Assembly: GCA_951406725.2 (NCBI GenBank)
Contig: OX597818.1
Location: forward strand, 59,272,001 to 59,336,000
Direction of reading: 5' to 3'
Length of the DNA stretch: 64,000 nucleotides
Origin: Octopus vulgaris
Lineage: Eukaryota
A program made the position numbers and the translations under genes. Position 1 is the stretch's first letter. Each line of letters opens with the position of its first letter. The notes beneath the pieces were generated by a model. The model was not told the DNA's origin and made no database searches. It saw nothing but the letters and a program-made list of their open reading frames with translations. This document shows positions 4,590-58,745 of the stretch, one piece after another.

Positions 4590-4925
4590 TATATAATATT
4601 ATTAGAGACAAAACCACTATTTTGCAAAACAAACAAGGAAAGACTTAATCAATACATAAAATTTTAATAAAAAGTCATAATTTGAAACTGACTTATTGGA
4701 AGTCCACCTGAAGATTGTCGATCAAGACAAGAAACAATTGTAGTGGCGGTTTTTTTGACTTTTTATTAAAAGTTTATGTATTGATTAAGTCTTTCCTTGT
4801 TTGTTTTGCAAAATAGTGGTTTTGTCTCTAATAATATTATATAATATTTTACTATAAAATTGGATTTAATCCTAAATCTGATTTTTTCCCTGTAAATTTT
4901 GGATTTATTCCCTAATATTTATTAT
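4590..4925 (+). mobile_element. PLE terminal remnant, family A: inverted repeat, hammerhead in loop, tail
   Basis: Arms 4590-4677 / 4756-4843 near-perfectly inverted; tail 4844-4925 homologous to the 3' end of the GIY-YIG element at 22140-22222. Confidence 0.85.
4704..4746 (+). ncRNA. Minimal type I hammerhead ribozyme
   Basis: CCAC-CTGAAGA-TTGTC(gatcaa)GACAA-GAAA-CAATTG-TA-GTGG: intact core, stems I and II pair, palindromic stem III, GUA cleavage triplet. Confidence 0.85.
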
Positions 4926-6873
4926 ATATATTTATATATATATATGTGTGTGTGTGTGTGTGTTTGTGTTTGTCCCCCTAGCATTGCTTGACAACCGATG
5001 CTGGTGTGTTTACGTCCCCGTCACTTAGCTGTTCGGCAAAAGAGACCGATAGAATAAGTACTGGGCTTACAAAGAATAAGTCCCGGGGTCGATTTGCTCG
5101 ACTAAAAAGGCGTTGCTCCAGCAATGCCGCAGTCAAATGACTGAAACAAGTCAAAGAGTAAAGAGAGAGTATATATATATATATATATATATATATATAT
5201 ATATATATATATATATATATATATATTACTCATACGAGAATGCATAGAGCTACACAGAGGCAAGTCCTTGCTGACACACCTGCAAACTTATATTAACTCG
5301 CTGCCACAGAAGTACCCGTAGACAGCACTCAAAAACACACATTTACGCACACACAAACGTATATGTGTCTTTGATTGTCTTGCTGTGCCTGTCATCACAG
5401 ATGTGTTTCAGGATGAATGCATATCTTGTTGTGAAGTGTTAATGCTACAATCTTCACTCCTCCAAACACTCCAAAATTTTCCCCCTCAAAAACTTTTTTC
5501 TCTAGAGATTAGGTGTACCTGAATAGGATTGAGACAAAGACGTCGGAGATCGAAATGAAATTCGGAACCACTTGCCATGCCTTCATATAAAATATATTAA
5601 TATGTTTGTTTTAATGTTTTGTTTTTACTTACACTCTATTCTTTGTTTGTTTGGTTTGTTTTGTATTTTTTGCTAGGCACAACATATATATTCAATTACC
5701 CTTCATGCCTAAAATTTTAAGCACTAACCCCTCACCTCATAAGTATTACAAAGTTGAGTAAACATTATTCAAATTAGTCTGCCATATGTTACATAAAAAA
5801 AGCCTCACCTTAGATGACCTTTTATGTTTAACTACGTCTATACAAACAACTTTGATTTTTCAAAACACTTTTAGCTCTCAGTACAAAAATTTATACTTTT
5901 TCTCGTTTTTTTTTATTTCTAATGCAGTGCAGAATATATTTTAATGCACACCATCTATAAACATATTCTCTTGGCAGCTGTCCAAATTTTCTTCAGAATG
6001 TAAACGCAGTTACATAATATTCAATCAATGAAACAGTGCCTGATAATGTACGGTTAAGTTATTCCTAGCCTACGTATAAGTTCTCTCTAGAGGACGTGTA
6101 AAATGTCGATGATATTGCGGATACTTGTTCCCCGTGATTTATATAAACTTATCGAAGGAATATCTTAAATTTATACCGTTATACAATAAACAGCATGTTT
6201 CGAAATGAAGACAAATTATTCTCAATGGAACCATTATGAACGGGGTATATTTTATGTATCCATGAAAGAATGTGCACGTATAGATGTCTCTACGTTGAAC
6301 TGAAGGAGCAATAATATACAAAGCTGAAACAAACTACGCTGACACAATAAATTTTACAAGAGAACAGAAATTTTGATAGTAACAAAAACAACATAAAAAC
6401 AGTTGCAAAACGTACTAAAGACAGAGTGCAGAGATAAAAAGTCTTCCTCGTTGAAAAACCCACGATGTTAGGAAGAGAATTTCAGCCAGTGTAAAAACTG
6501 AGATTGAATCGAAAGTTCCGTACTAAAAGCCGTAAACGAAAGATGGATTCTCGCTGTTGAACATCAATGTTCAATCACAAATAATTATAATCTTTTCTAA
6601 TCAAGTCACAAGGCCCAAAATTGTAGGGGGGGGGAGGACAGTCGATTAGATCCACCCCAGTACACAACTGGTATTTAATTTATCGACTTTGATAGGACAA
6701 AAACGAAGTGTATTCTCAATGTTGATTATGCAAATCATAAGTGGAAAGAGTTACTCATGTAGTAACTGAATGGAGCATGCAGGCACAGAAAGAATACTAG
6801 AAAAGACATGGAAATCAAGGGAGAGCACACAAACATAAAATTTATTTGATGAATATACGCATAAGTATTTAAG

Positions 6874-6975
6874 CACACACACACACACACACACACACAC
6901 ACACACACACACACACACACACACACACACACACACACACACACACACACACACACACACACACACACACACACA
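6874..6975. repeat. (CA)n microsatellite
   Basis: Direct observation. Confidence 0.98.
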
Positions 6976-6989
6976 TATATATATATATA

Positions 6990-56255: not shown

Positions 56256-57238
56256 TGTTTCTTTATTAGCCACACAGGGCTGCACACAGATAGAACAAAT
56301 TACAAGGTAGAGCTTTTCTTTTGAAGGTTTAAAAAAAAAAAAAAGGAAGGGGAGTTTCGATCAAAAAGGGATCGTAAAAGGAGAGAAAGAGGACAAAAAA
56401 AGGGGGTTAAAAAAAAGGGGGAGAGAAAAAAAAATTGATCAATAGGGATCGTTATCACAGAAATGTCAATATGAAGTGTAAAGGGGAGGACAGGTGAGGC
56501 TTACGCGTGGAAAGAAAAGCCTATGGAAAAGTCCACGGTAACCTCGGTCAATGGAGTCACATGTTATATTTCTTTTTTTTTTTTTTTGCGAATAAGCAAC
56601 TCTCTGTTTTCAATTTCTGGGTTCATAGGATCATGCTCAAGGTGGCTTCGTCATTCATACGTGCCATTCTTGCTACATTCACCCATCTTTTTTTAAAACA
56701 TTCGCTAGACAAAACTTGCCTCTCTACTCTCACTTTCCTTTTCAAGTGGTACTTGAAGAAGTTGATGAGAGATTGACCAGAGAGGAAAGTGTTTGTCTCC
56801 AATCCTTTCAGACGCGTCCACCAGATACATTCTTTCGCCATAGCCACAAGGATGATGAAAATAGCTCTACCTTCCCGTTTGAAGGAGGGAGGCGTGACAA
56901 TATTGACGATAGACTCAGCTGATAAACCAACTCGTCCCACACGTGACAGCAGTTGTTCGACACAAGCCCACAGGTCGGAAATTGTTGGACACTGCACGAG
57001 TGCGTGCAGAACGGTTTCGTCGCTCTGACCGCATCTCGGGCAGGTCGGCCCCGTGTTTCTTGAGCCGTGTCTGTAGAGCTTATCCCGAACGGGTAGCGCT
57101 TCTCGGTAGCACTGCCAGGCCAGGGATCTCTGGAAGTTGTCCATGGGCCCTGGCCCGAAAGTCGTCCTGAACAGGCGGGTCAGGTACTCCTCGTCGACGT
57201 CCAGGTTCGCCCCGAGCTCGTCGTCGTACCTCCCCTCG
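56256..57238 (-). mobile_element. 5'-truncated Tx1/L1-clade LINE inserted in (GATA)n
   Basis: Intact ORF2 C-terminus 56623-57238 with zf-RVT motif ALPVRDKL..CPRC..ETVLHALVQC..IWWTR; 3' UTR ending AATAAAGAAAC; (GATA)n on both sides. Confidence 0.9.
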
Positions 57239-58080
57239 ATAGATAGATAGATAGATAGATAGATAGATAGATAGATAGATAGATAGATAGATAGATAGAT
57301 AGATAGAAGACAGGCGTCAACACAGATTGTGTCTACAAAATTCAACCACAAACATTGGTTGGCCTCCCACAACAGTAGCAGACACAACACTATGAGACGG
57401 AAACTTAAACAAATTCGTAACAAGTTCTTTTGGCTACACACCAATTTTGTACAGCCGTATATTCTGAAACGAAGCAGCATATGTCTTACATTCTTTTCTT
57501 TTTGTAAAATGCTATAACTCACCTGAATGTAACCAGCCAACGTTACATGTTAAACGTTAAAATGAAAGAAATGAAAGTTAATTCATAAATAATTACATAA
57601 TTACGTATCACTCAACTGAGAGGAATTAGACAGGTAGAAAAATAAGAACGTGTTACCTATGAAATTAAGCAGACTGAAGTTTTGCTGAATTTATTTCGTG
57701 GCATATATCTCAGGAATGAAATTTATGGCATTAATTTACCATTAGAAATACCATAAAATATATGAAGAACAACGATATACAGGTCATGGGAAAAATTTTT
57801 CTACGAATTTATGTTACCTAACAATGCCCATGCACATGATACCATACCCGTGTGGGCAGTCATCTAAAAGTTTTTGTGCATCTTGATGCTGACATACGTT
57901 CCTTGTTTTTCCTGATGAGAAGGCGGCATAATGCACCCCTTATTCCTTCGAAATTAGGAATATGCAGCCTTCGAAACATATGTCGAAAATAAAGGAATTT
58001 TGTTAATTCGTCCTTCAACTCCATTCTTTCATTTATATATATATATATATATATATATATATATATATATATATATATAT

Positions 58081-58745
58081 CTAATGTAGGATAAAATTTT
58101 TTCGAAAAAAATTATTTTCCAAAACAAAATTTTATCAATGGCCAGCATATTAAAAAATACCTTTAAATGTTAAAATTATAAGCAATTCATAAATAAGAGC
58201 AAACGAAAAAATTTCTAATGCCAAATATGTCGAAAAATTGGACATATTGTCCATTAACCATATAATTTTTTCACAATACGCCCGCTACTCGAAAAAAGGT
58301 GGACAGAAATTTCTAAAAATTTCCATTGTTACCATATCGGACCGATTTCAGGGTTAGCTTATAACAGCCCCCCTTCGTCAGTGATACATGTGGCAAAAGA
58401 AATAAATGAGATACTTACTCATACCCATGGAAGAAGCAAACACTAAGTCATGAGCACAATTAAGTACCCCAAATACATCCAAAATAGAAATACTCTAGCC
58501 CATTCGAGACACGTGCGATTTGAACTGATGCTCTCACAGAGTGAAAGAGTCCGAAAGTGAACACTTAAATTTATACCTAATGTAGGATAAATTTTTTCGA
58601 AAAAAATTCTTTTCCATACATTTTGGATGTATTTGGGGTACTTAATTGTGCTCATGACTTAGTGTTTGCTTCTTCCATGGGTATGAGTAAGTATCTCATT
58701 TATTTCTTTTGCCACATGTATCACTGACGAAGGGGGGCTGTTATA
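58081..58745 (-). mobile_element. PLE terminal remnant with hammerhead, direct repeat and inverted arm, in (TA)n
   Basis: Arms 58360-58484 / 58621-58745 inverted; CTAATGTAGGATAAA..TTTTCCA directly repeated at 58081 and 58577. Confidence 0.8.
58330..58386 (-). ncRNA. Type I hammerhead ribozyme
   Basis: Minus strand: TATCA-CTGACGA-AGGG(...)CCCT-GAAA-TCGGtCCGA-TA-TGGTA. Confidence 0.8.

Follow-up and report, generated by a model that had tools for sequence, protein, structure and literature searches.

Hammerhead motifs in the window

The DNA considered here, hereafter the window, is a stretch of 64,000 nucleotides from Octopus vulgaris (GCA_951406725.2, contig OX597818.1, positions 59,272,001 to 59,336,000, forward strand), in which eleven hammerhead ribozyme motifs belonging to eight sequence families (A-H) are found. 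These are very probably type I hammerhead sequences situated close to the 3' ends of Penelope-like element (PLE) copies and, in one family, within a likely non-autonomous 498-bp unit, most of the copies in the window being likely inactive leftovers of truncated insertions. The strict descriptor used for detection comprises CYGANGA, a stem II of at least 3 bp, GAAA, a stem III that is palindromic or at least 3 bp long, UH, and a stem I of at least 4 bp. It is matched ten times in the window, four times on the plus and six times on the minus strand, at nine of the sites named in an earlier note on this DNA and at 57907-57989(+), which the note overlooked in counting about ten. The motif at 22005 satisfies only a relaxed descriptor because its stem III, CTATTG, is decayed and no longer palindromic. 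The core CUGANGA, GAAA, and UH around three helices that defines type I hammerheads is present, with the canonical CUGANGA in eight of the eleven motifs and U4C in the other three (9252, 24464, and 36874). Rfam returned no match in the window at the gathering threshold, and among the 150 of 279 rows listed by E-value there was no hammerhead family, those rows being microsatellite noise. Cores with U3-A8, other bases at position 4, a core insertion, or one mismatch gave no extra matches within the window. Elsewhere, U3-A8 core families with palindromic stem III were noticed (L036:8632-9440, L045:90-131, L018:2761-2805, and L038:7132-7171); in 600 kb there were six U3-A8 matches, four from one sequence family, vs 5, 1, and 0 in shuffles.

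In 60 block dinucleotide shuffles of the window, strict matches averaged 0.017 with a maximum of 1, so that a motif count similar to that of the window, which the earlier note had named as a possible refutation, was not seen. Exact pattern searches of the genome yielded 1,798 matches for family A, 7,846 for H, 6,189 for C, 347 for D, 101 for E, 1,575 for F, and 1,911 for G, and the reversed-pattern controls of the same seven families yielded 0 each. Chance matching in AT-rich repetitive DNA, for which the silence of Rfam and the short, G-U-containing stems of some motifs could be cited, is already refuted by the shuffles, and the family counts with their empty controls, together with the fixed position at element 3' ends, leave it practically no probability. 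The motifs are real as hammerhead sequences, and their kind was correctly recognized from the window alone: all ten sites of the earlier note have CYGANGA, stem II, GAAA, stem III, UH, and a paired stem I, and stem I does differ across the eight families while pairing and the remaining core are retained. Its description of the families as unrelated went too far, given that 4704/22005, 23811/30366, and 24464/36874 are same-family pairs and that the reverse transcriptase (RT) sequences of A, C, D, and F are related. The palindromic stem III that it reported holds for eight of the ten strict matches, with 24722 and 58330 also able to pair as monomers, but the AACGTT assigned to family H reads ACGU in register and corresponds to the published loop-less form.

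Parent elements of the families

In six of the eight families, sequence coding for RT and/or GIY-YIG is found upstream of the motif in longer copies, which supports the link to PLEs drawn from the window. Such copies were found for A (L140-L142), C (L147, L150, and L234), D (L153-L156), F (L219 and L220), G (the window, L225, and L226), and H (L157). The related RTs of A, C, D, and F show 37-48% amino-acid identity to that of F and display features of the Hydra clade (Craig et al. 2021, PMC8557442). These features are DKT in C and F (A and D copies are truncated and end short of this site), the CxCX5C linker in A, C, and D, CxxC and CxH around E and N in A, C, and F, absence of CCHH, a (TA)n target, and the hammerhead itself. 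Unlike the described Hydra elements, which are below 3 kb, A and C possess 3' untranslated regions (UTRs) of 2-5 kb, and F, of these four families the one recovered at its N-terminus, has RWL where Hydra has RWK. Long asparagine-rich inserts, resembling those described for rotifer Penelope open reading frames (ORFs), occur in Hydra-type ORFs (L141, L153, L154, L220, and window 17597-18772). G and H combine DKG, the CX4CxxC linker, and CCHH inside a GIY-YIG at the C-terminus, the signature of the Neptune clade, and also resemble it in head-to-tail arrays, unlike it in the U4C core and, for G, in having two overlapping ORFs rather than one. Family H encodes a single 1,008-aa ORF between two direct repeats that contain the hammerhead (L157). 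The unit of family G, repeated head-to-tail, is 4,271 bp long and includes a 775-aa frame for RT plus GIY-YIG; its window copy is 98.6% identical over 4,156 bp to the tandem copy L226. By protein motifs, A, C, D, and F would thus be Hydra-type and G and H Neptune-type.

Several observations weigh against this picture. The clade labels rest on protein motifs rather than on a tree of named references, and F lacks the CxCX5C linker. No PLE parent was found for E, and none with coding sequence for B in the 20 loci examined out of 41 diverged matches from a DNA search; the exact B pattern occurs in three places, all in the window. Moreover, (TA)n density and motif count are weakly correlated (rho 0.19, p 0.08; 80 stretches). 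In stem I of family B, local copies differ from the family by a compensatory double change and a single wobble change (23811-23861); this covariation was not counted as evidence because the single two-sided pair change is found in three related local copies.

Features of the window

Table 1. Hammerhead motifs and associated elements in the window (positions are those of the 64,000-nt stretch)
Position	Strand	Feature	Remarks
~4578-4945		Short head-to-head insertion with family A hammerhead	
4704..4746	+	Family A hammerhead	Strict descriptor; predicted cut after 4742; Hydra-type PLE 3' end
9122..13240	-	Family G Neptune-type PLE	Near-full copy of 4,271-bp unit, between (TA)n tracts
9252..9296	-	Family G hammerhead	U4C core CCGAAGA; predicted cut 9257, 135 nt before element 3' end
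9793-12114	-	Family G RT + GIY-YIG frame	Pfam RVT_1, GIY-YIG; one in-frame stop; ORF1 upstream, 5'-truncated
17170..22240	+	Family A Hydra-type PLE	5'-truncated; minisatellite in long 3' UTR; inverted 5' piece
17597-18772	+	Family A endonuclease ORF fragment	88% amino-acid identity to L141
22005..22048	+	Family A hammerhead	Relaxed descriptor only; stem III (CTATTG) decayed
23811..23861	-	Family B hammerhead	Old family; followed by tRNA-like short interspersed nuclear element (SINE), a label we presume
24130..24180	+	Third family B copy	C3 -> U, weakened stem I; head-to-head with 23811
24464..24500	+	Family H hammerhead	Loop-less stem III, U4C; Neptune-type PLE 3' end ~24452-24614
24694..27157	-	Family C Hydra-type PLE 3' UTR	Microsatellite-rich; inverted partial copy from 27034
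24722..24772	-	Family C hammerhead	Monomer 4-bp stem III possible
30366..30416	-	Family B hammerhead	Duplicate of 23811 (local)
36874..36908	+	Family H hammerhead	U4C; fragment ~36861-37007
47981..48068	-	Family D hammerhead	3' fragment of Hydra-type PLE, ~47953-48232
57907..57989	+	Family F hammerhead	3' fragment of Hydra-type PLE, ~57848-58033
58070..58745	-	Family E, 1.1 units (58070-58616) plus inverted 126-bp piece	(TA)n at both ends
58330..58386	-	Family E hammerhead	Stem III near-palindromic; monomer 4-bp pairing also possible

One (TA)n tract is shared by two families in two places, H with C tail-to-tail (24452-24772) and F with E (57848-58745). The F and E block is duplicated about 60 kb downstream (L111:6404-7227), and the B block is duplicated locally (23359-23912 and 29914-30467; 554 bp, 98%) as well as at L214. 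The window further contains the 3' end of a zf-RVT long interspersed nuclear element (56623-57549, minus strand) and a weak DUF7083/zinc-knuckle gag-like piece (33604-34436, plus strand). It is rich in microsatellites and in a 183-bp repeat, which we take to be an octopus SINE.

Density and genomic background

The ten strict matches in 64 kb compare with a genome mean of 2.45 per 64 kb (95% confidence interval (CI) 1.5-3.6), based on 23 matches in sixty 10-kb stretches (600 kb) chosen by position, with 0-2 matches per shuffled set; one or two of the 23 resemble chance. Extrapolated to the 2.8-Gb genome, this amounts to about 107,000 motifs (CI 65,000-159,000). The flanks hold 13 motifs in 200 kb. 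The probability of at least ten motifs per window is about 2e-4 to 7e-4, from which 10-30 such windows are expected among about 43,750, and the window, about fourfold above the mean, represents the upper tail of a background found across the genome, not a special locus. The very dense and diverse set of self-cleaving motifs announced by the earlier note is therefore confirmed in its density, but only as such a tail, and overstated in its function, since the copies are truncated and mostly solo or head-to-head. The fourfold excess could be taken to mark a selected cluster of active ribozymes acting on a host transcript. This is highly improbable: the count is what the upper tail predicts, the strands are mixed, several copies are decayed (22005 and 24130), and Pfam detected no host gene among 75 ORFs of the window and 200 kb of flank, although short exons would escape such a search. 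The likely source of the local excess would instead be many (TA)n targets combined with nested insertion; the window has 15.6 (TA)6+ tracts per 10 kb vs 10.3 in the sample. Nesting was also noticed at L146, where G lies within a C insertion.

Copy arrangement and a proposed route of insertion

The arrangement of copies was assessed over 546 places listed, families A, C, F, G, and H contributing their first 100 each and family D contributing 46 on C1. Solo motifs account for 322 of them, and the 118 pairs within 10 kb comprise 100 head-to-head, 14 direct (nine of them G), and 4 convergent. Given that copies are mostly solo or head-to-head, dimers in cis are mostly impossible; the predominance of head-to-head pairs matches the published insertion pattern of PLEs. 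Of 46 matches, 36 have a (TA)5+ tract within 300 nt downstream of the cut site and 20 have one upstream, against a random baseline of 22%. Seven head-to-head pairs of family C on C1 (among the 100 places listed; e.g., 2604343/2604373) share a 30-bp offset, and this constancy places the inversion point on a short palindrome at the 5' strand of stem I. In some F pairs, the inversion falls within the loop II hairpin. Both types of inversion possibly arise by fold-back priming.

Predicted free energies of stem III self-duplexes range from -1.7 to -15.2 kcal/mol, and those of monomer hairpins from +2.4 to +6.0 kcal/mol in six of ten motifs, the two H motifs forming none. Stem III is thus predicted to pair better between than within molecules in A, B, D, F, G, and H, C and E being capable of both. 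Palindromic stem III and the predicted energies fit the published model invoked by the earlier note, in which these hammerheads would cleave as dimers; minimal hammerheads (min-HHRs) are reported to cleave weakly and only as dimers (PMC4209133).

Genomic copies extend past the cut site, so we infer that the template was uncut or circular. In the proposed route, an element protein would nick (TA)n DNA and prime reverse transcription at a point that in the window lies about 35-265 nt downstream of the hammerhead, on RNA uncut at the hammerhead; with such priming, nearly every insertion, even a short one, would copy an intact motif, often twice and head-to-head. Consistent with this, RT has been reported to initiate internally, with both strands extended and unprocessed RNA as the main template (PMC11167929). 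If cleavage is relevant at all, it would be so in transcripts of head-to-tail source arrays, where two motifs could pair through palindromic stem III and cut slowly, probably with help from a protein. In Poseidon, hammerhead cleavage needs the element's protein and is dispensable for insertion in vitro (PMC11167929). Solo and inverted copies, including all in the window, are likely inert.

The U4C core and the role of cleavage

In family H, the C4 form has 7,846 matches, U4 2,984, and G5A 222. CpG decay as the origin of the U4 class was rejected on this basis: the mirror change G5A is rare, and U4 and C4 therefore represent subfamilies. Family G has 607 matches to its U4 pattern. Among the 100 G places listed, 19 are U4, with none of 14 unit-spaced tandem motifs but 19 of 86 others; Fisher's test of this absence gives p=0.066, a value above 0.05 that counts against our reading. 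Thirteen C4 copies of G are 96-100% identical to the intact C4 unit and eight U4 copies 83-96%, a comparison whose reference favours C4. The corresponding comparison for H (48 C4 vs 2 U4 loci) says nothing about age, since C4 was a criterion in choosing the loci. Contigs of other sequencing runs contain both forms of G, and the 3,993-base contig X10, from a run guessed to be RNA, spans a G tandem junction with an intact C4 motif. On these pattern counts, U4C is a real lineage trait. In a viroid, the same change lowers activity in vitro yet suffices in vivo (PMC3088659).

Compatible with the identification as PLE hammerheads, yet different in its view of function, is the explanation that the motifs are vestigial even in active source elements, cleavage being unneeded and the core drifting. 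It is unlikely, though by no means negligible. U4C occurs in the youngest G copies and in the intact H copy, and the viroid variant loses activity in vitro; furthermore, catalytic mutants still transpose in vitro (PMC11167929), and Naiads spread without canonical hammerheads (PMC8557442). Nevertheless, stem I differs among the eight families with pairing and the remaining core kept, G5A is rare in H (222 vs 7,846), and the viroid U4C variant functions in vivo. Two Neptune-type lineages may have amplified independently under a weakened U4C core marking young head-to-tail G arrays, and selection may favour reduced cleavage that spares uncut tandem RNA template, a doubtful proposal at present.

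Family E as a retrozyme-like unit

Family E is a 498-bp non-coding unit whose longest open frame has 54 codons. Two motifs one unit apart were found in L222 and in L223, with at most about 1.7 units in tandem; copies exceed one unit, are often head-to-head, and end mainly near two unit positions, 20 of 28 of the ends listed running into (TA)n. GIY-YIG sequence at L165 was considered as a parent and rejected, the hit lying outside the unit. What E has in common with non-LTR retrozymes (Cervera and De la Pena 2020, PMC7229834; bioRxiv 10.64898/2026.07.22.740005) is that the unit is short and non-coding, that each unit contains a single type I hammerhead, and that copies exceed one unit in length. 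Family E differs from them in its 498-bp length, its low tandem number, and its PLE-type head-to-head (TA)n insertions. By these sequence features, it is likely a non-autonomous, retrozyme-like derivative of PLEs.

Two overlapping reading frames in family G

In family G, ORF1 overlaps ORF2 in the -1 frame (L226:3356-4717 and 1122-3446, minus strand; window ~12020-13240). The overlap is present in four tandem units of L225 and L226, so that the single ORF typical of Neptune elements is found in H and not in G. All tandem units examined carry a U-run slippery-like site in the overlap; no stimulatory hairpin was predicted there, and no splice across it was seen in contigs of four runs whose RNA nature is guessed. 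Among the top 120 homologues of the G protein, none exceeds 803 aa. Named homologues are mostly from bivalves, a few being labelled mollusc symbiont. Close homologues labelled as bacterial gill symbiont proteins (P0006, P0009, P0069, and P0093) are probably host DNA in symbiont assemblies. The data suggest a two-ORF, possibly frameshifting, molluscan clade of PLEs. No report of frameshifting in PLEs was found in a literature search made mostly without subscription papers.

Relation to known systems

Motifs of the kind described here are already published for many animals (Cervera and De la Pena 2014, PMC4209133). Finding them in a mollusc was expected; the supplement of that paper lists Lottia and Crassostrea, and the members described here are new. 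Like the window motifs, PLE min-HHRs are type I with a short stem I and a palindromic or absent stem III, occur in many sequence families per genome, and are found mostly as solo truncated copies and opposite-strand pairs. Family H corresponds to their loop-less form, with an extra base between 9 and 10.1. Several octopus families, unlike published min-HHRs, carry long loop II inserts, and the U4C core of G and H does not appear in the available portion of the text or in one supplement file. Counts per genome were 2,000-9,000 in that study vs about 1e5 estimated here with our own descriptor; 126,247 motifs have been reported in axolotl and more than 6,000 in coral (PMC7229834), and 235 Rfam hammerheads in giant squid (PMC6962438). 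As for octopus, two of the four Octopus rows in the supplement of PMC8557442 are listed and are Naiads, and two papers describe Penelope elements (PMC13282606 and PMC8967140), in the available text of which "hammerhead" occurs 0 times. The same literature search found no report of the present hammerheads and retrozyme-like units in octopus or other cephalopods, or of their U4C core.

What the window adds

The value added to a known kind is modest. About 1e5 motifs in 2.8 Gb, missed by Rfam, would rank among the higher PLE-type counts, with the proviso that descriptors differ. Family E, if correctly read, would be a retrozyme bearing PLE insertion signatures and would lend structural support to the proposal that PLEs mobilize retrozymes. 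Likewise, if the reading of G and H is true, the genome would offer natural U4/C4 pairs for testing the role of PLE hammerheads. Young intact elements with both cores make that function testable.

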